A stretch of 64,000 nucleotides of DNA, taken from contig AP026123.1 of NCBI GenBank assembly GCA_030295235.1, forward strand, positions 2,046,001-2,110,000, given 5' to 3'. The notes under the pieces are model-generated. The model was not told where the DNA came from and did not search any database. It saw only the letters and a program-made list of their open reading frames with translations. Made by a program: the position numbers and the translations under genes. This stretch comes from Fistulifera solaris. Its lineage: Eukaryota. Within the stretch, counting starts at the first letter, position 1; each line of letters begins with the position of its first letter. Positions 2,867 to 63,125 of the stretch are shown in pieces.

Positions 2867-3412
2867 ATCAACAATTTGGATCCCAGCATCACATTCATTC
2901 ATTTGTAAGCACCGGACTATGAAATTTTGAATTCATTGTAGAACAAATCAATTCACGACTATTACCTGCAAACTTCTCATGTGGCTTCGTGCGCGGAATG
3001 CTTGGTTCTTTTTCAGCAGGACGTACGTCAAACCTATCGCTGCGTGCTCTCCATGACTTTCTAATAGGCATCCAATGATGAAAGCGCACGCTTACGACAT
3101 GAACATCAGAGCTCAGCTTTCTGAAGGCGACAATCAACGGCTTGAAAATATATCATCTCCCGATATGCACGGACAGTTTGAATATTACACCTTTACGCTT
3201 TTCTCGGAGAAAGCTGTACTACTTTCCATTGTCCAAAAAGGTTTCGTCAAACTGTCAAATTCCCTGCGACCAGCGACCTAAACGTCGTTTTCGTCCACCA
3301 ATCAGATCGAGGGGTTTTCGTGAACCAGCCCCTCAACATATTCGCTGTCATGAAGAGCTTCTATCATGGCGCTTTCGTGCATAATTCTGAGTGATGCATT
3401 AAAATCTTTACG

Positions 3413-5296
3413 ATGCTTTCCGCGAACACTGACATCAAGATTGCGCTGATCGGGCACGTGTCTGTGGGTAAGACGACGGTCCTTAATGCGTTGTTTCGTG
3501 ACAAGTTCGGAGAGGTTTCGATGAAACGAACGACTGCGGGAATCAACTACTTTCGTATCATCTCCAATAAGCTGAAAGCGAACAAACGACTCAAAGTGGA
3601 AGAGAGTGCGGAAGAACCGACCGAAGAAAATGGAAAACGGAAGATCGGTATTGCGTCTTACGACACAAAGTCCGCAGGGGCGATTCTCAAGGAGATTACG
3701 CCCGACAACAAGGCCTTTCGAAACTCTTCGGCTATCCACGAGAAGTTCTTTGACATTGAACACGACGAACCGCTGTGTGACATGCGCAAGGATACAGATC
3801 TTGTTGTTGTCGACGTACCGGGCATCAACGAGGCCGGCGCTGGTAGCAAGTATCGGGACTTTGTGGAGAAGAAGTGGCACACGTTTGATGTTGTTGTCCT
3901 GGTGATGGACGGGAAACAAGGTGTCAACACCGAAGAGCAGTTGAAGCTCCTTCAGTTTGTCAAGAACAACCAAGAAACGAAACGGAGAGTTTCTTTGATT
4001 ATTCTTCTGAACAAAGTGGATGATCCCGATGATGAAGAACAGTCCGTTCTTGTTGACGAATCTCGTAAGGAGGCAGAGAAGCAGTTCAATTGCACGCTCG
4101 AAAAGCTCCTTCACAACACTCAAAAAGGCGCCAAGAGTAAGATGAGCAAACTTACTCCAATTCTCATTCCGACGTCTGCTATGCACGCCTACTTCTATTG
4201 TACCGCGTCGCTGATGACCTTCGATCAGTTCAAGAAGTTTGACAAGGATCTCATCGAAAAGATTGGCCGAGAAGAGGTTGGTAAATTCAGATGGAAGAAC
4301 CTTAGTGAGGATAAGAAGTACCAAGCCGTCTACGAAGCCGTCAGTGAGGAAGGACAGTACAAGGAACGTCTCGAAGCCACGAACTTTGACAAGTTTCTCG
4401 AAGCTTTGAGGGACTTCATTGGCGACGAATTGGCTCAGCTGAAGATTTTACAAGAACAGGTCAGGGTTTCATTGAAGAACTTATCTCCCAAGGAGGGCTT
4501 GGCGAACCAGTTTCGTGCTGCTTACGAAAAATCCAAAGCTGTGGGTATGCAGTTTGCGAATCTCAGTGATCACTTCTGGACGACTTATAACGAATTGGAA
4601 AAGCAAGTGATGAGCGACGTCAAGGGACCAACAACTATAGGCCTTCTTTCCGAAGCGATGACTGAACTCAAGTGTTTTCATAACTTGGCCAACCAAGCCT
4701 CTTGGGAAGAGGATCAAAACAAGGCTCTTGAGCGCATGAGAGGTCTCATTCGTCGCCCGCTACTTCTAGTCTTTGAAAAGGCGTCCGAATGTACGAACAA
4801 GATGGCATCTGGTGCTTACCTACCCAAATCACCACCACACGAGTGGTCTGACCTATCTCCATTGGACTGGCACACGATCTGTAACTCCTTTTTGTTACTA
4901 TCGTACAACAAGACGTTCTGCTGCACCTTTGGCTTTGAAAAGAATCTTGTTGAGATCATCAAAGATAGTTTAAGTATTTCATCGTTGAGCTGCGCGTTCT
5001 GTTGTGAAAGTCTCACATGGGAAGCTCGAAACAAATACGGTAACTGTGGAAACTCTAACTATGGTAGTGATTACCGCTCCCACAATCGTTGCGATAGTTG
5101 CGGGAATCAAGCGTCCCAGCCCGGCAGTATCTTCGCTTTTACTCTCGATAATAAATCAGAACTGTGCGCCGTTAACAAGAATTTGTATATGCACGCCTTC
5201 ACTCTGGCAACGCCGACGTCTTTTTCCGATCCTAAACACTGTGGGCATCTAGCCTGGGTATACTGTGAAGTCATCGACTCCTTGCACGCGATGTAA
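3413..5296 (+). CDS. Dynamin-like/TRAFAC P-loop GTPase with Cys-rich C-terminus, tandem copy 1 (intact, 627 aa)
   Basis: G1 GHVSVGKT, G2 KRTT, G3 DVPG, G4 LNKVD. Long helical middle region. C-terminal CxxC...CxxC. No intron. Confidence 0.8.
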   Translation: MLSANTDIKIALIGHVSVGKTTVLNALFRDKFGEVSMKRTTAGINYFRIISNKLKANKRLKVEESAEEPTEENGKRKIGIASYDTKSAGAILKEITPDNKAFRNSSAIHEKFFDIEHDEPLCDMRKDTDLVVVDVPGINEAGAGSKYRDFVEKKWHTFDVVVLVMDGKQGVNTEEQLKLLQFVKNNQETKRRVSLIILLNKVDDPDDEEQSVLVDESRKEAEKQFNCTLEKLLHNTQKGAKSKMSKLTPILIPTSAMHAYFYCTASLMTFDQFKKFDKDLIEKIGREEVGKFRWKNLSEDKKYQAVYEAVSEEGQYKERLEATNFDKFLEALRDFIGDELAQLKILQEQVRVSLKNLSPKEGLANQFRAAYEKSKAVGMQFANLSDHFWTTYNELEKQVMSDVKGPTTIGLLSEAMTELKCFHNLANQASWEEDQNKALERMRGLIRRPLLLVFEKASECTNKMASGAYLPKSPPHEWSDLSPLDWHTICNSFLLLSYNKTFCCTFGFEKNLVEIIKDSLSISSLSCAFCCESLTWEARNKYGNCGNSNYGSDYRSHNRCDSCGNQASQPGSIFAFTLDNKSELCAVNKNLYMHAFTLATPTSFSDPKHCGHLAWVYCEVIDSLHAM

Positions 5297-5831
5297 ACCG
5301 ACAAAGTACAAAAGTCAATCAAAAAGTAACTGCGAAGCAAATAACATATTAAATAAACACTTGGTAATCATAGTCTAGAAGTGACTTTTTCGATAGGAGT
5401 CAGGAGTTCGAAAGCGGAACGAAAATAGTCCACCCGCTTGGCCATCGTTGATGCAGGGCCTAAATTTCACCCTTCTAAACGGCATAGAGACTTAACAGAG
5501 ACTGCAGAACAAGGTAGGTCAATCCAGGGACATGGTCTTACCTGGTAAATGCAATCAACAAAGATTTTCTGGAAGCTCTAAGAAAGCGAGTTATGTTTTG
5601 ATGATTGCCGTTTGGACAAGTTATGACTTACTACGCACATCGAACGCAGTCACTTTGAACTTTGAACTACGGAGTAAACCTTCTACTCAAAACTCAAAAA
5701 GCGAACCCGAGGAAAATTCGCCAACCAATCAAATTGAAGCAGATATGAACGCTTCGGCTACAATACTTGTGTTTGTCTCAACAGCTTGAAAGCTTTCATT
5801 TTCTTCCAAATACAAGATCTCAAAAGATACA

Positions 5832-7695
5832 ATGATGGTGAAAGCTAAGACTGACATCCAAGTTGCGCTGATCGGGCACGTGTCTGTGGGTAAGACGACG
5901 GTCCTTAATGCGTTGTTTCGTGACAAGTTCGGAGAGGTTTCGATGAAACGAACGACTGCGGGAATCAACTACTTTCGTATCATTCCCAAGCAAAAGAATG
6001 CAAGCAAGAAACCCAACGGAGCAAAGACTGCTAAGGGGTCGGTTGACGAAATTGGTAAGCAGTGGGTCGATATTGCGTCTTACGACACAAAGTCCGCAGG
6101 AGCGATTCTCAAGGAGATTACGGCCGACAACATGGCCTTTCGAAACTCTTCGGCTATCCACGAGAGGTTCTTTGACATTGAACTCGACGAACCGCTGTGT
6201 GACATGCGTAAAGATGCAGATCTTGTTGTTGTTGATGTACCGGGCATCAACGAGGCCAGCGCTGGTAGCAAGTATCGGGACTTTGTGGAGAAGAAGTGGG
6301 ACACGTTTGATGTCGTTGTCCTAGTGATGGACGGTAAACAAGGTGTTAACACCGAAGAGCAGTTGAAGCTCCTTCAGTTTGTCAAGAACAACCAAGAAAC
6401 GAAACGTAGAGTTTCCTTGATTATTCTTTTGAACAAAGTGGATGATCCCGATGATGAAGAACAGTCCGTTCTTGTTGACGAATCTCGTAAGGAGGCAGAG
6501 AAGCAGTTCAACTGCACGCTCGGAAAGCTCCTTCACAACACTCAAAAAAAGCGCCAAGAGTAAGTCGAGCATATTTACTCCAGTCCTTATTCCGACGTCT
6601 GCTATGCACGCCTACTTCTATTGTACCGCGTCGCTGATGACCTTCGATCAGTTTAAGAAGTTTGACAAGGATCTCATCGAAAAGATTGGCCGAGAAGAGG
6701 TTGGTAAATTCAAATGGAAGACCCTTAGTGAGGATAAGAAATACCAAGCCGTGTACGAAGCCGTTAGTGAGGAAGGACAGTACAAGGAACGTCTCGAAGC
6801 CACAAACTTTGACAAATTTCTCGAAGCTTTGAGAGACTTCATTGGTGACGAATCGGCTCAGCTGAAGATCTTACAAGAACAGGTCAGGGTTTCATTGAAA
6901 AACCTATCTCCCAAAGAGGGCTTGGCAGATCAATTTGAGTCTGCATACGAGAAGTCGAAAGTAGTCTGCATGCCCGCAACAGACCTTAGCAATCACTTCT
7001 GGGTCAAGTACAACGACCTAGAACAAAGAGTCATCAAAGACTTTGTAGGGCCCGCATCGATTTGCATCCTGTCTGAAGCAATGAACGAACTGAAGAGCTT
7101 CTATGATATAGCGCACCGCGCTTCTTGGGAGGAGGATCAACAAAAGGCTCTTGAACGAATGAAAGGCCTTGTGCGTCACCCACTGCTACCTTTGCTAGAG
7201 AAGGCGACAGCATGCAAAAATCAAATGCAAGAAGGTGCTTTTACTTCAAAGTCTCCCCCAATTCAGTGGACCCATTTATCTCCCTTGGACTGGCATACGA
7301 TCTGTAGTTCATTTTTGTTGCTTTCGTTCAACAAAACTTTTTGCACGACCTTTGGCTACGAAAAGATGTTGGTAGAGATGGTCAAAGATCGCCTCAGCTT
7401 GTCTTCGCTGAGCTTCACGTACTGTTGCTCCAAGGTTACATGGGAAGGTCAGGAAAGTAACGGAATTCGTAACGGAGGCTACACTCGCTGCGGAAGCTGT
7501 GGCAGTCAACATTACAAAAAGCAAGCGAATATATTCGCTTTTGACTTGAACAGTAATTCAGAGCTACGTCCCATCAACAAAGATGTTTATGCCAGCGCGT
7601 TCACTCAACAAATTCCGACGACCATATCGGATCCAAAACATTGGGGACATCTTGCTTGGGTGTACTGCGAGGTCGTGGAGTCCCATACAGCGTGA
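5832..7695 (+). CDS. Dynamin-like GTPase, tandem copy 2 (one +1 frameshift in the A7 run at 6544-6550)
   Basis: ORFs 5832..6563 and 6442..7695 together align end to end with copy 1. Copy 1 reads CAAAAAGGCGCC where copy 2 reads CAAAAAAAGCGCC. Confidence 0.8.
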
Positions 7696-8219
7696 TCCTT
7701 AAAGGATCTCTGAAAGAATACACATTACATGAAGTAGAAATGATTCATTGTCATTTCTTTTGGTAAAGGTTAGGTAGGGAGACGCCAATGCATTTTTTAA
7801 AATAGTGTCGTTGATGCACAGACCACCGACCTCAACACTTTCTCGTGACGCAGCACCTCCCTTCAAATCCAAGACGCTTGCTGGATGGACGTTCGTTGCG
7901 GTGGACGAAACATGTTCACATCGCATCTAATGACATGTATGATACAGTTGCGAGTGTTTATTCTTTTCCTGGAAACAATATTTTTTTAAAAAGATCATCA
8001 TCGCGTCGCGTGGAGGATGAGTCGTCGTCGCGTTGGTAAAACAACGTACACTCGCAGCGGTTCTGCTATTTTGCATTCGAAGAAAGATGCGCGCAAAGAT
8101 CGCGATGCGCGAGGCGCGAGATATGTGCGCTCCCTTTTGTGCATCCACTTCCAAACAAATGAGGTCTAAATAATATCGTTTCGTTGCGTCCCTCGGTTTA
8201 TTCACAGGTGAAACTAATA

Positions 8220-10045
8220 ATGATGGCACCCGCCAAAGCTGAAATTAAGGTCGCCCTGATCGGGCATGTTTCGGTCGGTAAGACAACGGTCCTGAACGCA
8301 TTGTTCCGCGATAAGTTCGGAGAGGTTTCGATGAAGCGAACCACGGCCGCGGTCAACTACTTTCGTATCGTATCTAAAAGACCTACTGAGGATAAAGCGG
8401 AAGCAGGATCGACGGAAGAAAAGAGTAAACAGTGGGCCGATGTTGCGTCCTATGATACCAAGTCGGCAGGTTGTATTCTCAAGGAAATTACGGAGGACAA
8501 CAAAGAGCTGAGGAATGCGTCTGGTATCAAAGAGAAGTTTTTCGATATTGAACTCGACGACCCGTTGTGTGACATGCGAGAGAACACGAACCTTGTTGTC
8601 GTCGACATCCCGGGAATCAACGAAGCTGGTGTCGGTAGCAAGTACAGGGATTTCGTTGAGAAGAAATGGGACAAGTTTGATGTTGCCGTTTTGGTGATGG
8701 ACGGAAAGCAAGGTGTCAACACGGAGGAGCAGTTGAAGCTTCTCCAGTTTGTCAAGAGTAATCAAGAAGCGAAGAGACAGATTCCCTTGATTATTCTTCT
8801 GAACAAGGTCGACGATCCGGATGATGAAATACAAGCAGTACTTGTCGATGAGTCGCGTCAGGAGGTTGAAAAGCAGTTTGGCTGTCGAATTGAAGAGCCC
8901 CTTACCACGCATAACGAACCTCGCAAAGAGGCGCCCATCCCCGTTCTCATCCCGACGTCTGCCATGCATGCCTACTTTTACCGTACTGCGTCACAGATGA
9001 CGTTCGATCAGTTCAAGTCGATCGACCAGGAGCTCATCGAAAAGATGGGCCGCGAGGAAATTGGTAGATTCAAATGGAAGGAACTCAGCGAAGATAAACG
9101 CTATCAAGCCGTTTATGATGCGGTCAGCGGGGAAGGGCAGTACAATGAGCGTCTCGAAGCTACGAATTTCGACAAACTTCTTAGCGCTCTGAAGGAAATC
9201 ATCGGCGATGAGCAAACTCAACTTATTACCTTGCGAGAGCAGGTCTTGGTAACATTAAGCAACCTTCCGAAGAAGCAAGGGTTGACTGATGAATTCAAGT
9301 CAGCCTACGAGAAGTCAAAGACGGTGGGTATGCCAGCAGAACCTCTTCGCGATATGTATTGGAGCATGTACGAGGAACTAGAAAAGCGGGTAATTGGTGC
9401 CTTCGTAGGACCCGCGGCGAGACACGTTTTGTCAGAGCCAATGATTGAAATGGCAATTTTTTACGAGCTAGCCTGCCGAGCATCGTGGGAAGATGACCAG
9501 AAAAAAGCTCTTGATCGTATGAGATTTCTCGTTCGCCACCTCTTGGTCTTTATTTTCAAAAACGTGAAGGAATGCAAAGAAAAGATGAAAACGGGCACCG
9601 TTGTTCCGAAGTCTCCCCACTTGAATGGTCAGACTTATCTCCTTTGGACTGGCATTCAATCTGTAGTTCCTTTTGTTACTAGGGTACAGCAAATCTTTCT
9701 GCAGCACTTTTGGCCGTGAAAAAATGCTGCTTGAAATCTTGAGAGACAGTCTCATGGTTCTCGTATTGTACTCATTGTAAATGTTGGGTGGCTCGTAATA
9801 AGGATGTCAATTATGGCAGCAGCAACTACCACTCTCAAGGCCGTTGCATGTGTGGCTCGCAGTACACCGATCCAACCAGTAGCTTCACTTTTGTTATGGA
9901 CGAAGAACTAGAGCTTATTCCCACTGATAGCACGCTCTTCTCAACTATTTTCACCCAGCCACTCCCGACAGCGTTCTCGGATCCTAAGCATTGGGGACAT
10001 CTTGCCTGGCTGTATTGTGAGGTTGTTGACTCGCATACAAAGTGA
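8220..10045 (+). CDS. Dynamin-like GTPase, tandem copy 3 (frameshifts near 9615 and ~9760)
   Basis: Same G1-G4 motifs (GHVSVGKT, DIPG, LNKVD). After frame changes it continues LSPLDWHSICSSFLLL and ends SDPKHWGHLAWLYCEVVDSH like the other copies. Confidence 0.8.
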
Positions 10046-10159
10046 AGGATGATAGTTTGGACGCGTGCGCTCGTCAACCTGTCTATCATTTATTGTTTGA
10101 GCCGTAAGATCTGTAAAACCAAAGATACGAACAGCCATGCCATATAAACGCGTCTTATT

Positions 10160-13432: not shown

Positions 13433-16272
13433 CTAAAAGATTACATAGCGACTTTTGTCCACCATTTCGAAGAAAGATTTGGTAAAGGCGCAAACTTCGT
13501 CAAGATCGTAGTCGGGTTCCAACTTATCCGTAATACCTTCATCGATGGACAACAGAACATGCCCCCAGACACCCATCCAGATATCCAAATTCATAAGAAG
13601 ATCTAAAGTAGCAACTTTGTTGGCGGGAAAAGCTCCAGCCAAACTTCGAGCACAATCCTTGATGTTACGCGACCAGCCCGTATGTTCGGATAAAGCGTAT
13701 ACAAACTCCAGCAAAAAGGACCCAACCACAGGGACGTTCACAGAGAGAACAAAAGCGTCATCAATCTTCATTGAATCGTGAATTAATCTGATTCTATTCC
13801 AAAAATCGGCCATAAAAGTGTCTTGCTGTTTATGCGCTGCATTTCTCTCGATTGAAGTCGTGTGTATGCTTCCAAAATCCTGTAGGACGAGGCGTCGAAA
13901 AGAGGAACTATAATTTTCGGGGGGAAATAGCAATTTTCTGTTTGCGTAGTGCCATTTAACTGGTGAGTAGGCAATTCTTTCACTATAATAGGTAATAAAG
14001 GTACAGCACCTCCTTACCTCCGCATGTTCGATTGCTTCCAACTCTCGCTACAAATGACAATTGTATTATTCTCATTGGAAGCAGTGAGACGAGCAGCTGC
14101 TTTGGCGTTCAGTCCAAACGACATCCAGAACACCTTGTAACAGGATCCCTTGTCTGGTTTCCCGCCAACCCACACAGCTTTTGTATCTTTGAACACTTCA
14201 TCCAATTTTTCCAAAATGGGAATATGGAAGGACCGGTCGTGAATTTTGAGACCATTGTATAAATGCAGTGCAAATTTCAATTGGCCCACTGAATTAACAG
14301 TCGCTCGCCACAAGTCAATAGAGCAGATATACGTCGCATATAGCATGTACTCTCCTGCAATAAAAGGGTTCCAAAACGCAAGATATACATTTTTTCTTGT
14401 GCTGATCAATTCGATCAATCTCATTGACAGTAAAAGCGGACTGGGCATAATCCGCAATCTCACTGAACTTCAGGATGTTGCGGTAAAACAAAGAACAGTT
14501 TTCATGATCTTTGTTGCTAGTAGCCGCGACCCCCAGTTGTTCGAAAATCGTATCGAATGACTGCTTGGAGTACGCTGCAAGACGAGCCAGATCGCCGTTG
14601 CCTTGAATTACAAAAATGGAAATCAAAACCGCGTGCAAACCGAAGGTCATGGCTGTGGGCCCCGGGCATGTCCGGTCACCATTTAAATGCTGCTGAAATA
14701 GATCGAGCACAGTAATCAAATGCGACCGGTGTGGTAACCAATGATAAGGCTTTTCTTGACAATTGCCGATAAGCTCCAGTAGAATCGATCTCTGAAAGGG
14801 TTCATTGAGATCTCCACAAATGCGACGGGCGGGATGTTTGTCCTCGTCAAAAGGATTCTTTCGAAGGCTTGAGGCCTTACTAAGACTTATTCTTTGTAGA
14901 TTCTCAAGATCATATCCAGCCCAGAACAAAGCTTGATGGACCAACCGTTGTGTATTCACCATGCAGCAATCACCTCCAATGTACTTGAATGAACTCAACC
15001 ATGAGTGTGCTTTCCGTCCAATTGTAGCTTTGATGCCTGTCTCGTGAATAACTGACCGGTATACCAGAGTCATAGTGTCTTCCACATATTGTGGTGTCAG
15101 CCCTGATATTGCGATAAACTCTGGAGGACAGGGGTTAAGCTCACTTTTGAACCCCCATAAAACGCAATTTTTAGAACGTCCGCCACAAACTCAAGGGCCA
15201 TATGAGGATTCGTCCTCAATCTAGTCTTCGCAATCCTTTTGTTCATCTCTGCAACGATGTCCGTCAAAAACACGAGCGCAAGAACATGATAGAACGACGA
15301 TAGATGGGGGTGATCAAGCGTCATTTCGTTCTCTGCGCGATTCACACATTCCGTGGCCTCATTGGCAACGACAGCGCATTCCATCAGTAATTGCATGGTG
15401 CGCGACGAAAGCTGTTCCTCAATGGCCTCCATCCTCATGTGTTCTTTAAGCAAGACGTACTGATCATGCACGGCCTCCATTAGATCATCCATAAGCTGCA
15501 AGAAAGCCATGGCTTGGAATCGATCGTCACCCTTCAAAAGGGCTACTTTGATGTCAATTTCTTCCTCCACCTCAACTCCGACGTATTTGGGAACGTTTCC
15601 ATCCTTGATATCACGGTCGATATCCCCCCAATCGATGTCTTCGATCGAGTCATCATCGTTGAGCGTCAATGCATGAAAACGCCCGCCAATCGAGTCCAAA
15701 GCGCCACCTTGATCCTCTTCGTCACTCGCTTTGCAGACGGCGGCAACTCGATTCCCAAATTGAAGCGCGCTTCGACAATAATGCAACACATCGATGATAT
15801 ATTGATGCCCGAGATCGCCTCCGACTTTCGACCCGAACCGCTTTGCTGCAACTCTTTCTCGCAATCGAATACTCGAGATTAAGGTGCTCATGATTTCTGG
15901 CGGGGCCACAATGAGATTCGCGGACTGCATGTCATTTTTGTTCAAGTAAACATTCATGTTATGCTCCACGATGCGGTCGACACCTCTGCGGTAATCATCA
16001 ACTGCTGTCATTTTGGAGCTAGGACAAGCCTCGTTTGCCATCCAGTTGTGAAAACGCAAGCTCTCTTCCTTGTACCGCTGATAAAAGCCACCGTCGCTGT
16101 TGTTGTTGCCATCATTCGCTCCTACTACATTCTTCTCAGGCGATGTAGGTAGCGTCCCTGTTATTCCCTGCTGTCCGCTTTGTTGAGTTGCGGAGGCTCG
16201 CGGGACTGGTCCCTTGTTGTGTTTGTTGCTTCGGCCCTTCTTTCCCTTGTTGCGTCCTTTGTTGTGCGGCAT
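13433..16272 (-). CDS. Large hypothetical protein, probably DUF6604-containing, split over four ORFs
   Basis: Consecutive same-strand ORFs 15097..16272, 14315..15085, 14014..14463, 13433..14041. N-terminal FYQRYKEESLRFHNWM...IRLRERVA...GHQYIIDVL resembles the DUF6604 pattern. At least two breaks lie at homopolymers. Confidence 0.55.
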
Positions 16273-57669: not shown

Positions 57670-60600
57670 TTATTCCTGCTCGTTTTCGGTCTCATCTTTC
57701 TTTTCGTTGACTTGAGAGTCAAAGAGGGGCTGAGTAATAGACACATTCGAACCTCCAAACGAACCGAATGGATTTGTCCCCGACCCAAACGCGTTGAAAG
57801 GTGAGCTTGCTGGCGCCGGTGCCGGTTGAGCAGGCGTCGGCAACTTGAACGAGGACGTGCCAAAAGAGAACGACACACTGGATGAACTTCCCGGAGGCTT
57901 CATATCAAGAAAGGAAGTACTACTGCCTCCACCAAACACTGGGTTTGCGAGTGTCGGCGCTTCGTCTTGCTTTTTTCTCTTGTGCGCCCCCTACACTAGG
58001 CTCTGTTGCTGTTGAAGAGCCAAAGATTGGGGGTGCCACCGTGTTGAAAGACAGGGAACCGCCGGAACCGAAAGCTGGAACGATTGTGGAGTCAGGCGGT
58101 GGAACGACCAAATCCATTTTAGAAGCGTCGGCAGAATCACTCGTTGGTTCGTTTTGCTCGGCGTCTATTTTCTTCGTACCATCGCCTTCCTCTCCCTGCT
58201 TTTGCGCATCTAGGATAAGCATTTTATTGTCGGACTCGGATTCGAGACTTGTTTCAGGAGCGTCGCCCGTTTTCGCCCTTTTCTCCTGGTCGTTAGGCAG
58301 GTCTGACTGGGCATTCTGACTGGCCTCAACTTCAAGTTTTCTCTTGCGAAGTTTGGCTTCTTCAAGTTTGCGCTTCTTCTCTATTAGCTTTTCTTTCATA
58401 GAGAGTTCCTTCTTTTCTCCTGACATTCGCCTAGTTGGCTTTGGAATATCTGCTTCCGAACCAGCTATAGCTGTATCAGGAACGGCATCGCTCGTCGACG
58501 GTTGACTAGACTTGTTCTTTGAGGGCATGTCACCTGTTGCGGATAGAACCTGCGGCATTTGCTCGCTGGTGCTTTTCCCCGGCGTGTATACCTCGGCTTC
58601 GGCTCGTAGAGGTGATCGTTTCTTAGTTTCGACCAGTTGCTGCGTCTCACTTGTACCGTCACTTGGCCCAAAAGTGAACCCTTCTTCCGGAATCACAGGC
58701 AGTCTTTCCTCTAATACTTCTGCTTGCTTTCCGGAATCCATGTTGCTAGGAGCTTTCGAAGCGTGGGTTGACACGTCAAGACCTGCAGACGAACTCTTCA
58801 AAGCTGCAAGCTGGTCTGAGAGCTTTTTCTCATTGTCTTTGAGTTCCCGTATTGTTGACTGAAATTTCCTGAGCGTTTCACGTAGCCTATTATTCTGTTC
58901 GTTTGCCCCATCCAATTGCGTTTTGTGGGAAGCTGCCTCTCTTTTCAACTTGTCCACGGTTGTCTTCAGTTCTTGCTGTTCCTCTAAAATCTTTGCGTTC
59001 GAGACTTTAGTATTCAATAACTTTTCATTCTCCGCTGTAAGTGTTTCGATTTCTTTCGTTTTCTCGTCGATTAAAGATTTTTGCTCCCTGGCTTTCTGAT
59101 TTAAGTTTTTGGCAATGTTTCTAATGCGTACACTTTCTTCTTCGGTCGCTTTCTTCCAAGCATTCAGTGACTCCTTTTCTTCTTCCATTGCGCGGATAGT
59201 TTCCTTCAACCGGCTATGCTCTTCTGGATCAATTTGATTGAACTTCGAAACCAAATTTTGGACTCTTTCCTTCCAAGCTCCAAGGTCTCTTTTCAACCCG
59301 TCTCGTTCGGCGTCCAGTGCAGCCACTTGTGCACGTAGCTCGCAAATAACTGCCTCATTCGGCTTAGAAGACTCTTTTAGAAGTTCAGTCTCTTTTGTAA
59401 TTCCAAATTCTCCTTCTGTAACCTCTCTTTTTCGGTACGTAAAACCTTATTGCTATCGGTCAAAACCATTACTTGTGCTTCTACATCATGCAACTTGTGA
59501 ACAGCTTCGTTGCCTTGGTTCCCTTTGTCGCGTGATTCCGAAAGTAGTACATTTAGTTCAGCTCTCGCTTGATCCAGATTTCTTTTCACAACATTGCTTG
59601 CTGACCTTTCACGATCGAAGGACCGCTTTGTGTTGTCGAGCTCCGACTGAATCAGCTCATTCTCGGATCGAAGGAACCGGACTAGTTCGCGTAACTCTGA
59701 AACTTCTTTTTGTTGCGCTTGATTTTGCTGCTCGGCTCCTTCATCCCTTCCGCCGGTATCTACAATGTTTGTCTGTGTTGCGTTTCGCAAATTTTCAAGC
59801 TGTGTGTGTAATGCAGCATTCTGTTCTCTTGCCTGCTTTAATGTTTGCTCTTTGATTTCAAGCGCTTCTTGAAGAGATGACTTTTCGTCTGCCCAAGCTT
59901 CACGGTGGCCCTCGCTTTCTCTTTGCAGCGTCAGGAAACTGCTTCGAAGCTCGGTATTGGTTTGCTCTTCTTTACTCAGCTTTTCCTGGACTTCGCGTAG
60001 CGAAGACCTAGCCTGAGAATGAAGACCAAGCTCTCGTTCGTAGTTCCTCTGAGCGATCGTAATCTCGCTGCGCAAACTTTCAACATCTAATTTTAAAGTC
60101 ACGTTCGCTTCTTCCAATGCTTCGACGTCTTTCGACCGACTTTCAATTGTGGCTCTCAACGTGGCAATCTCGGTTGTCAGTTTTGTCTCATTCTCACTTC
60201 TTTCGTCCCGGTAACTAGCCAAATCATTCGTAAGATCTTGAATAATTTCTTGTTTGGAAGTATTCAACGCAGACAAATTTTTCACCTTCTCCTCCAAGTC
60301 AGCTAATTCTCGTGCTTGTTTAGTCGTATTCTCTTCGGTAAGTGCTTTCAGGGTAGCAAGCTCTGACTCACTAGCTTGGGAAAGGTTTTTATAGGTCGTG
60401 ATCTTTTCCGTCATCGAGGCAAGTTCGGCATCTTTCGTTTCGATTTGCAACGCAAGACTGTCAATGCGTGCTTGCAGAGAGGCGTAAACATCATCGTCTC
60501 CTGTTAATCCGTCATGCGTTTTGGTGGTAACTCCAAGCTGCGACTCCAATGATTTGCATTTGGACGCCACCGCATTCAATTCTGCCTTGACTTCCAACAA

Positions 60601-63125
60601 AGCCTTGTCAGCCTTCAACAAGTCGGCTTGAGCTTTAGAGCTTAGATGTTCAAGATCCTTGACCCGCATATCACTTTCACTCAATTGAAGCTGCAACTTC
60701 TCAAGTTCACCGGAGTGCTTTTCTCGCTCTTGTTTCAATTGCGATGATAGGCGGGCGACCTCTTCATGAAGTTTTTCTTTCTCGCTCCCAGCTTTGGTTG
60801 CGAGTGTTGCCTCAATACGGCGTAGATTATCGTTGACAGATCCATAACGAGCAATGTCGGCGCGCAGTTGGTGGTTTTCCTCGACCGCGCGGGCCTCAGA
60901 AGCTTTAGCGGTATCTAATTGAGCTTGCAGGAGACGAAGATTACTCTCCAATCGCCGCGAGTCTTCTTCCGCGCGGCTTAATCGTGAGTTCACTTGTGAG
61001 AGGCTTCGCTGGAGCTCCGCATTCATTCGTTCTAACTCGCTTTTTGCACTCATGATGGACATAACCTCACCGCGAGAGCGCTCAAGAGCTGATTCCAAAC
61101 GTTCCGACTTCTCCTTATGATAGTCAGTTTCAGATGACTTGCGAGCCACTTCGCTACGATGCGAGACCAGCTGGCTTTCTAAAGAGTCAACAGAGCTTCT
61201 CAACTCAGTCAACACTGATTCGTACCGACCAATGCGTTCCGATAAGCTTTCTTTTTCTCTCAAAGCAGAATCATAATCCGACTTGGCAGCAATCAGTTGG
61301 TTTTCAAGCTCTTTGTTGCGTTCTTCTAGAGCCCTGGACCGGTCCGATTGCTGTCTTATCACTGCCAAAGCGTCTGCTTCGTCCTGGAAAGTGCCTAAAA
61401 TGTTACTATCCTTTGACGCCAACAGCGATTTATATAGATCGCGCTGCATGGCGATTTGTGTCGCAAGACTTTCTTGATCGCGCTGCTCCTGTCGAAGAAC
61501 ATTCAGCTGAGATTCTTGCTCCTCAAGCTTTCGCTGTAGGTTATCATCGTCAAATTTTCGCTCAAGATCTTCAATTATTAGCATCAATCTTTGCTGCTCA
61601 GTAAGCAACCGCTGGTTCTGACTCTGCATTTGCTGAACAGACAAAGGAACATCATCATCGACATTTCCACCGGAGCGGCTTGTGAGAAGCCCCTGTACCT
61701 GTTTTGCCAATTCTTCTGACTCCTTCTTCTTGGTCGCGAGGACGAGTCGCATAGTAGATATTTCATTCTGAGCATCTCTAGCTTCCTCTCTTGCGGTGTC
61801 GCGATCAAAAATGACTTGCCGCAGCCTCTGTTCATAATCGTTCATTTTGTCCATAGCGAGTTCGTACTCCTCAAGTTGGCGAATCATTTTTGGGCGAGAG
61901 TCCAAAATGTCTTGCTCCACCTGTCTGAACTGTAGTTGCCAATGTTTACATAGAATTTTTTCCTGTCGAAGTGCCTGTTTTGTCTCTTCAAGTTTTGTGT
62001 ACAGATCTGTCAATGACATCGGCTCTGCGTCTTTCTCGTCGTCAGTTGCCATTTCGATACTGTTTGCGATAATGCCGACGGCTCGAGGATTCTTTGCCTG
62101 CACCTCTTCTAGCTTCTTCTCGTAATCTTCCTTCTGCTGTTCAAGCAGTTGTTTTGATTCAGTTTCCAATTCAACGCGTAAGCGACTAAGTTCCTCTTCG
62201 TTTGCCTCCATGGCACGTGCAGCTGCTTCTTTCATGTCTTCATTCTGACGGACCACGTCATTGTATCGCTGTTGCCACCTTTCTAAATGATCCTTTTGCA
62301 ATTGAACGAGTCTCTTTTCCTCTCTCAACTGATCTTCACTTGTCTCTTGGACGGCAACAAGCTCTTGCTTTACGGAAAGAAGGTCCCGAGATAGTTGGTC
62401 AACCCTTTCTTGTAATTCGACCTCAGTCTGCTTTACAACTTGGAGAGTTGCTTCCACAGTCTTTTTTCTCTGTAGTGGTTTGGTCTAGTTGCATGTGGAG
62501 GTCAAGCGTGCGGTCGCGCGATTCTTGCTGAAGGCGGTTATAGTCTTCGGCTTTTTGCTGAAGTTCTTTCTCTAACCATTTAGAGTGAGCTTGCAAACTA
62601 TCGATTTCAATTCGAAGGCGTTGAGTTTCATGAAAGAGGGGGATAGCCTCAGAATCCTTCAGCTTGGTCTGAACCTCTAGTGTCGAAATAATCTTCGATT
62701 TCTCAGCATTCTGATCAGATAAGCGACTTTGTGACAAGGAAAATGTTAGAAGACGGTTCATTATGGGCATACGGTATCCTAGAAGAACGTACCTCAACTC
62801 TTCTCGTAGCGAATCGCTCTCGGCTTGAGATCTATCGACTCGTTCTTGAGCCAACTTGACGCTCTCTTCCAGAGTCAGAATTTTCGACTGTGTGGCCAAC
62901 TTATTTGCTATTTCTTTCTCAAGCTCGATCTGTAATCGCTGGATCGTTCCACTGGCATCGTCAACTAGCTTTTCTTTAGCCTCCAACAGCTCGTGCTCCA
63001 GACGATCGCGTTCCTCTCGGACTGCAAAATATTGGCGCTCCAAGTCTTCCAGCACCGTTTGCGAAACCAAATCCTCACCACGGGGGGAACGGCGCATCTG
63101 CCGTACCGCCCAAATCCATGTCCAT
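57670..63125 (-). CDS. TPR: Nuclear basket nucleoporin Tpr/Mlp1-like, long coiled coil (intron ~62727-62792; several frameshifts)
   Basis: About 1.7k residues of heptad coiled coil with SLTDLYT, QRDLYKSLL, AQRNYERELGLHS, ELRELVRFLRSE, WKERVQNLVSKF..IDPEE. C-terminal FG-rich tail. Confidence 0.85.

Follow-up and report, generated by a model that had tools for sequence, protein, structure and literature searches.

Three head-to-tail GTPase genes in the diatom Fistulifera solaris belong to an uncharacterised family with a conserved C-terminal module

A stretch of 64,000 nucleotides from Fistulifera solaris (contig AP026123.1, positions 2,046,001 to 2,110,000 of the forward strand; hereafter the window) carries an array of three related GTPase genes. 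Within the 64-kb window, tblastn with copy 1 found three related stretches, all on the + strand, and no fourth. Direct-repeat families in the array are spaced 2422 and 2360 bp apart, corresponding to a unit of ~2.4 kb. The tblastn matches, the open reading frames (ORFs) and the repeat spacing agree with one another and bear out the three head-to-tail paralogs that had been described in the original prediction, which was made from the letters of the window. The genes are as follows.

3413..5296, + strand: copy 1, an unbroken, intact ORF of 627 aa.
5832..7695, + strand: copy 2, two overlapping ORFs in the window; 620 aa, model FisN_20Hh269 (P0002).
8220..9780, + strand: copy 3, 520 aa after correction of two homopolymer errors; model FisN_20Hu268.

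The three genes had also been described as intronless. No intron is required to read copies 1 and 2 in full, and to that extent the description holds, but only copy 1 is unbroken in the window. Copy 3 starts with an ATG at 8220 and uses four frames up to 10045, i.e., three frame changes, and both of its database models are short (P0005, 519 aa; P0240, which is FisN_20Hu268, 520 aa). The G motifs reported earlier were located in the sequence (G1, GHVSVGKT; G2, KRTT; G3, DVPG; G4, NKVD), and the two motifs said to frame the C-terminal module, LSPLDWH.IC.SF..LLL...FG.EK and SDPKH(W/C)GHLAW(V/L)YCEV, were found in all three copies. The motifs were thus quoted correctly, yet the reading that yielded them had crossed the frame breaks of copies 2 and 3 without mentioning them.

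We compared positions 3300-10150 of the window with contigs of four public runs (X1, X2, X3 and X5). X1 is a wetland metagenome, and X2 was taken as DNA because its contigs extend over the spacers and add up to 51.6 Mb. The features that bear on the frame breaks are these.

6544..6550, + strand: A7 homopolymer that breaks copy 2; X1 and X2 lack one A at 6544.
9757..9763, + strand: genuine frameshift in copy 3 that separates ...DSLMV from SYCTHCKCW... and leads to a stop at 9778-9780.
9743..10045, + strand: out-of-frame open tail of copy 3, 100 codons in the +1 frame, with Cys pairs and SDPKHWGHLAWLYCEV.

X1 and X2 agree mutually, and within 6.85 kb both depart from the window at five homopolymers. 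Besides the A7 run, these are an extra C behind 9614 and an extra T behind 9670 in copy 3 and an extra A behind each of the intergenic positions 5695 and 7987. With one A removed, copy 2 reads through and is then identical to the 620-aa model P0002, and the corrections behind 9614 and 9670 remove the first two breaks of copy 3. Because X1 and X2 both correct the breaks at 6544, 9614 and 9670, these are assembly errors; three of the four frame breaks of copies 2 and 3 are therefore homopolymer errors of the assembly, and the fourth, in copy 3, is real. For this part of the assembly, that amounts to ~1 homopolymer indel every 1.4 kb. According to the accessible part of bioRxiv 10.1101/2021.11.10.468027, the F. 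solaris genome was first obtained by pyrosequencing, a history that fits the homopolymer errors of the window. Indels of this kind could make false pseudogenes elsewhere in the same assembly. The contigs of X3 and X5, two runs whose RNA nature is a guess, match copy 1 in parts (3630-5099), and a single piece of 170 nt from these runs, again RNA by guess, sits on copy 2 (6978-7147); the parts that X3 and X5 leave uncovered (copy 3 and the spacers) count as evidence neither way.

The remaining break, near 9760, does not lie at a homopolymer and is kept without an indel in X1 record 8 (6774-10150) and X2 record 15 (9326-9926). Since both X1 and X2 retain this frameshift, copy 3 truly ends at 9778-9780. 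The stop falls inside the C-terminal module, so that the zinc-ribbon part and the terminal motif are lost. The tail that follows, including SDPKHWGHLAWLYCEV, is out of frame. It shares 51 of 95 residues with the P0004 tail and 47 of 94 with that of P0003, and its terminal motif is still perfect. That the tail is open and conserved implies that the frameshift is recent, unless the tail is somehow still read. A full-length product of copy 3 is conceivable for the same reason, and such a protein may be made through a +1 shift or through splicing of 9757-9802. This 46-nt GT..AG span would restore the frame on splicing; as a candidate intron it was rejected, because its removal costs the first Cys pair and neither database model uses it.

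A 222-nt contig of X3 matches 9876-10040, in the copy 3 tail, with 14 differences, and both of its ends are loose. Its probable source is a diverged relative in which the tail is retained, and the piece would be transcript-like (X3 being RNA by guess). Contigs of X2 that are ~90% identical to 3964-4348, 5966-6124, 6786-7225 and 9167-9301, i.e., to parts of all three copies, would fit a second, homeologous array, so that copy 3 seems to have a diverged counterpart, though the copy 3 model is named as unpaired ("u").

The conservation profile and local hidden Markov models (HMMs) divide copy 1 into three parts, to which we add the variable loop of the first part and the tract held in common with copy 2.

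3413-4147 (~residues 1-245), + strand: G domain.
4148-4822 (residues 246-470), + strand: predicted helical middle.
4823-5293 (residues 471-627), + strand: C-terminal module.
3533..3652 (residues 41-80), + strand: acidic low-complexity loop between G2 and G3, variable, with low column conservation.
3653..4492 (residues 81-360), + strand: gene-conversion tract common to copy 2, 93-97% nt identity.

In a phylogenetic tree, copies 1 and 2 are sisters (support, 97/99), and the three copies form a clade with the environmental sequences P0003 and P0004 (support, 97/98), P0006 being the next branch. The longest branch is that of copy 3 (0.44 versus 0.15 to 0.23). The divergence of copies 1 and 2 is uneven along the gene: their nt identity is 92-97% in codons 1-40 and 81-360 and 59-77% downstream, and between the two conserved segments, in loop codons 41-80, it is 68%, with 17 of 40 aa identical. 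Synonymous divergence (dS) increases towards the 3' end: codons 1-240 have a dS of 0.20, codons 241-470 one of 0.90 and codons 471-627 one of 2.09. In residues 81-360, copies 1 and 2 share 264 of 280 residues, and copy 2 and its homeolog FisN_20Lh269 share 261 of 280; in residues 361-470, the corresponding figures are 65 of 110 and 99 of 110. Because constraint on the protein could not produce such a gradient at synonymous sites, we infer gene conversion and read the 5' 1.1 kb of copies 1 and 2 as homogenised by it, with the G2-G3 loop apparently left out. An intact homeologous copy is 90% identical. The ratio dN/dS lies between 0.05 and 0.39 in every computable region and pair, implying that purifying selection has acted on each of the three genes, even copy 3, through most of their history.

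In Pfam, Dynamin_N scores 51 to 57 bits in the three copies (51.2 bits in copy 1); the cut-off is 27, and the matches span model positions 1-167 of 168. MMR_HSR1 (41 to 46 bits) and GTP_EFTU (35 to 45 bits) also exceed their own cut-offs, so that the earlier proposal to look for Dynamin_N and MMR_HSR1 found both. In an alignment of 65 family members (A2), each of the three families matches all 65 at an E value of ≤0.001; since MMR_HSR1 and GTP_EFTU do so too, the assignment to Dynamin_N is not exclusive. The G domain is complete and of the TRAFAC type, with an Era/EngA-like G4 (NKVD) and a G5-like SA. Its invariant residues in A2 are G19, K20, T41, P136, G137, N200, K201 and D203. Counting near-invariant positions as well, the conserved set comprises the P-loop GK, T41, D134, P136/G137 (DxPG) and N200/K201/D203 (NKxD), followed by S255/A256, W294, N324/F325, H609, G611 and W615. 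The acidic G2-G3 loop, which is poorly conserved at residues 48-85 of the conservation profile, is disordered.

Neither the middle nor the tail is matched by any Pfam family in the three copies or the 65 A2 members, the 417-aa distal piece of copy 2 has zero Pfam matches at an E value of ≤0.1, and no PDB family matches either part. For the middle (residues 246-470, ~225 residues), helix content by a crude propensity script is 50%, which is weak evidence. The N-terminus is not signal-like, the P-loop beginning at residue 14, and a scan of five members found no hydrophobic segment (maximum 19-residue Kyte-Doolittle mean, 1.36 to 1.45), the maximum lying in G-domain strands in four of the five; an amphipathic membrane element may still be present. 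By default, then, the protein is predicted to be soluble and cytosolic. Pfam detected no PH domain in the three copies or the 65 members and neither Dynamin_M nor GED in the three copies at an E value of ≤0.1 or in the 65 members at ≤0.001. The earlier statement that PH, GED and any standard eukaryotic dynamin class are unrecognisable here agrees with these results, to which the lack of Dynamin_M can be added.

The C-terminal module consists of two blocks, W..LSP.DW..I..S.LLL....F...FG.EK and VP.S.SDP.H[WFY]GH..W..C, and a variable insert between them that holds zero to six CxxC pairs and probably forms a zinc ribbon. In the last 190 aa of the 65 members, there are no CxxC pairs in 15, one in 4, two in 13, three in 19, four in 12, five in 1 and six in 1; 46 of the 65 thus have at least two. 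By local HMMs, 171 of the 198 family proteins of ≥550 aa that were retrieved have the G domain, the middle and both C-terminal blocks together, which argues that the module is more than chance and upholds the earlier claim of a conserved, unnamed C-terminal module in a region without a Pfam family. A word-sharing search, which cannot establish absence elsewhere, compared the tail alone with longer proteins and gave two matches, both to this array, and with residues 246-627 as the query it gave eight, all with Dynamin_N, with the same limit as to absence. An Atlas search with residues 440-627 returned nothing above 0.80; its leads were zinc-finger-like, with a DUF7605 row at 0.77. PHROGs gave one match, at chance level.

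Residue 610 of copy 1 (5240-5242) is a Cys, immediately before the conserved GH..W. This position is W, F or Y in every other GH..W-bearing relative among the 120 listed (by regular expression), and the codon shows no difference in the compared contigs.

A Nup98-type GLEBS motif (SAMP.Y..KS.EELR.EDY) occurs in 3 of 253 family proteins, in the linker before the C-terminal module, where Pfam Nup98_GLEBS scores 27 to 33 bits against a cut-off of 27.

P0056, residues 556-574: GLEBS motif.
P0160, residues 805-822: GLEBS motif.
P0172, residues 607-625: GLEBS motif.

Apart from these three, Pfam found no other extra domains in 19 long relatives. The motif hints that a few members may bind Rae1/Gle2 or Bub3.

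A profile search of 1.84 billion representatives, with family clusters counted at 50% identity, recovered 1,755 representatives at an E value of ≤1e-3, 1,181 at ≤1e-10 and 504 at ≤1e-30. Among the matches listed (the best 120 and the best 150), the named members are all diatoms, and in that sense the family is restricted to diatoms. They come from F. solaris, Seminavis robusta, Cylindrotheca closterium, C. fusiformis, Nitzschia inconspicua, Entomoneis paludosa, Amphora coffeiformis, the araphid Asterionellopsis glacialis and Extubocellulus spinifer, the last of which we take to be a centric diatom. Database labels read only "hypothetical" or "Dynamin N-terminal domain-containing." Many of the sequences are from MMETSP or otherwise derived from transcripts, and those of Seminavis are labelled "expressed unknown protein," implying that relatives of the array are transcribed. 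The conclusion that this is an uncharacterised GTPase family, as had been proposed, is thus sustained by a Dynamin_N-type G domain joined to a tail outside every Pfam family.

In a FastTree phylogeny of 36 members, paralogs group by species, with four sequences each from Fistulifera, Nitzschia and C. closterium, two each from C. fusiformis and Entomoneis and five of six from Seminavis; alleles, homeologs or isoforms may be among these "paralogs." Outside Fistulifera, too, there are local duplicates. In Seminavis, Sro247_g097960 lies next to Sro247_g097970 on the same strand, and some contigs of Nitzschia and Cylindrotheca carry more than one paralog. Most of the 35 metagenome loci are too short for tandem arrangement to be judged; L010 alone has two well-separated same-strand matches, and L011, L012 and L028 have a short second match. 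A stable, single-copy housekeeping GTPase, the finding that would have spoken against the original prediction, is not what we see: copies multiply within lineages and cluster by species.

No publication on the family was found, including through four Seminavis and two Fistulifera gene identifiers, though supplementary tables may name it; the Fistulifera identifiers are absent from the supplement of PMC5935921. In the Seminavis genome study (PMC7335047), Sro1548_g281600 is labelled "Dynamin superfamily (IPR022812)" and is a core gene with a piN/piS of 0.35. The same study lists HOM02SEM002750 ("Dynamin superfamily"), whose identity with the present family could not be verified, as of diatom age and expanded, with 18 genes and no tandem enrichment.

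How these proteins relate to known GTPases depends on the part that is compared. With the bacterial dynamin-like proteins (DLPs; Nostoc BDLP, Bacillus subtilis DynA and Escherichia coli LeoA/LeoBC) they share the Dynamin_N G domain with its DxPG G3, a size of ~600 aa, a predicted helical region behind the G domain and frequent adjacent pairs of paralogs. They differ in that profile alignment is limited to the G domain, in having an NKVD G4 followed by an SA G5, in lacking a hydrophobic paddle or anchor, in a C-terminal module, with CxxC and H[WFY]GH..W, that has no counterpart there and in being a eukaryotic, diatom-restricted family. Atlas feature matches reach 0.93 to bacterial dynamin-family clusters, and the 10 Atlas structure rows are all Dynamin_N clusters whose alignments reach out to residues 271-588, rows 1 and 2 from Nucleocytoviricota and the other eight bacterial. 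PADLOC matches to LeoA (residues 4-42 only; E value, 8.8e-6) and LeoBC (residues 8-375; 19.7 bits; E value, 9.5e-5) are not full length. In a search of one genome per GTDB species, no close bacterial relative appeared, the yield being 1 of 61 pattern matches, a 20-aa match to the P-loop only.

This prokaryotic match comes from a metagenome-assembled genome (MAG) of the Solirubrobacteraceae, where the P-loop belongs to an adjacent pair of bacterial Dynamin_N proteins of 592 and 562 aa in the usual paired arrangement of bacterial DLPs.

L037, 364-2142, - strand: member of the bacterial Dynamin_N pair.
L038, 580-2268, - strand: member of the bacterial Dynamin_N pair.

With Era and EngA (Der), the diatom family has in common NKVD, SA and a D(A/G).QGV(N)TE.. 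stretch after G3; unlike them it has a 60-residue insert between G2 and G3 and a 380-residue extension of unknown family, is multicopy and has neither a KH nor a second G domain. The core dynamin-related proteins of eukaryotes and giant viruses (such as MidX and group D in the accessible part of PMC10280142) are likewise large, detected by Dynamin_N and prone to novel lineage-restricted clades, but the diatom family lacks the Dynamin_M and GED of these core proteins (classes A to C, Opa1, Mgm1, MidX and group D). IRG, GBP, Mx and GIMAP evolve in a similar manner, by local duplication, gene conversion and loss of copies, any resemblance in function to them being presumptive. In contrast to tandem immunity GTPases, the diatom array shows no positive selection at the level tested. 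AIG1 is weak in 3 of 65 members and GBP is not among the 16 matched families, IRG being a model that was not sought by name. We therefore file the family as Dynamin_N-type large GTPases in a broad sense, distinct from core dynamins, bacterial DLPs and Era/EngA, and regard the "dynamin-like" label as only half secure.

Taken together, these results give somewhat better than an even chance that the array arose by recent tandem triplication of a gene of a diatom-restricted family of soluble GTPases of ~600 to 700 aa. Copies 1 and 2 are intact and copy 3 is truncated. A working model can be built on the size of the protein, its full set of G motifs and its predicted helical middle. In this model the protein would bind and hydrolyse GTP in the manner of dynamin-like proteins and might self-assemble through the G domain and the helical region, and the C-terminal module might direct it to a target (a protein or a membrane surface). 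For this mechanism as a whole, GTP hydrolysis with self-assembly and C-terminal targeting, we would allow roughly one chance in three. Several observations weigh against the reading. The best PDB relatives of the G domain are Der, EngA and Era (E values, 4.5e-6 to 2.4e-4), with mitofusin-2 coming after them at 0.011. Alignment by hhalign with two bacterial DLPs from a MAG covers the G domain only (90 to 91% probability). Pfam and hydropathy give no Dynamin_M, GED, PH domain or membrane anchor. The query-normalised Atlas structural TM scores are all <0.5 (0.33 to 0.46), from a poor model (pLDDT, 0.59), and the helical content of the middle comes from the crude propensity script.

That the genes encode cell-autonomous defence GTPases, as the original prediction had suggested, comparable to animal IRG, GBP and Mx or to bacterial DynA/Leo-type pairs, strikes us as unlikely. 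The variable loop and the zinc-ribbon insert would then recognise pathogen structures, and GTP-driven assembly would act on them. Expansion within lineages and local duplicates in several diatoms fit the birth-and-death pattern of such genes, as does the loss, now under way, of one copy of the array; the loop and the Cys-rich insert are the most variable parts of the protein, the PADLOC matches to LeoA and LeoBC, if weak, point the same way and bacterial DLPs act against phages (accessible parts of PMC8844932 and of bioRxiv 10.1101/2022.05.11.491447, Millman et al.). However, omega is 0.05 to 0.39 in all regions and pairs, the member Sro1548_g281600 is a core gene with a piN/piS of 0.35 and HOM02SEM002750, whose belonging to the present family could not be verified, has 0 conditions with enriched up-regulation (PMC7335047). 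A more specific version, in which the family would be a diatom-specific arm of cell-autonomous immunity whose loop and zinc-ribbon insert sense invaders and whose 3 GLEBS-bearing members of 253 hook to Rae1, is less likely again. If it were true, those members would have borrowed a motif of Nup98, and Rae1 at the nuclear pore is a node attacked by many viruses.

The relation to Era and EngA raises the question of a regulatory GTPase of that type acting on RNA or ribosomes, with the zinc ribbon binding nucleic acid. Der/EngA, Era and YsxC are the best PDB and NCBIfam matches, the G4 is NKVD, an SA stands at the G5 position, a GVNTEEQ stretch can be aligned to Der, and the Cys-rich part weakly matches the zinc-ribbon proteins 2jne and 7zhs (E value, 0.47 for each). 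The NCBIfam scores, however, fall far below the equivalog cut-offs (Era, 40.6 bits versus 237; EngA, 32.2 versus 306.7); Pfam finds one G domain in the window copies and neither a KH nor any other RNA-binding domain; 15 of the 65 members lack any CxxC; and a multicopy, lineage-specific, diatom-restricted family is unlike the GTPases of ribosome assembly. We give this explanation only a slim chance. An origin from giant viruses (Nucleocytoviricota), or exchange with them, which had been raised as a possibility, is highly improbable. The first two Atlas structure rows are Dynamin_N clusters of Nucleocytoviricota, at TM scores of 0.46 and 0.33 (both <0.5), and giant viruses encode many dynamin-related proteins according to the accessible part of PMC10280142, which mentions diatoms 0 times. 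The viral groups described there are "core" dynamins, whereas the diatom family has no Dynamin_M or GED. Two IMG/VR scans produced no relative: the three most conserved peptides of the family gave 53 matches, 0 of them confirmed by tblastn, and a P-loop pattern gave at least 120 stretches, in whose 770 open frames the G-domain HMM reached a maximum of 23 bits and neither the middle HMM nor the tail HMM had a match at an E value of ≤10 among the 120 stretches listed. The neighbours in the window are ordinary nuclear genes (Got1/Sft2, Omp85, ASF1, SERRATE/Ars2, TIP41, TAF7, SET, TPR/Mlp1 and cNMP/EF-hand), and the intact homeologous copy, 90% identical, also argues against a viral source, so that the proposed link to giant viruses finds no footing in these data.

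Diatoms perform a large share of ocean photosynthesis, and their lineage-specific cell biology and defences are little known. The work defines a sizeable diatom-only GTPase family (~1,750 sequence clusters) whose middle and C-terminal parts match nothing described. The family is a tractable target, since genome editing exists for Fistulifera (PMC13276009, accessible part), and the array itself would serve functional tests as a natural series: two of its copies are intact but differ in their tails, and the third has no tail.

Two further features of the window lie outside the array.

15097-16272, - strand: 391-aa ORF with a DUF6604 match of 44 bits.
57920-62457, - strand: strong AT skew (-0.33, -0.19) over two long minus-strand ORFs, one of 468 aa without a Pfam match and one of 1026 aa for a TPR/MLP1-like nuclear-basket protein.

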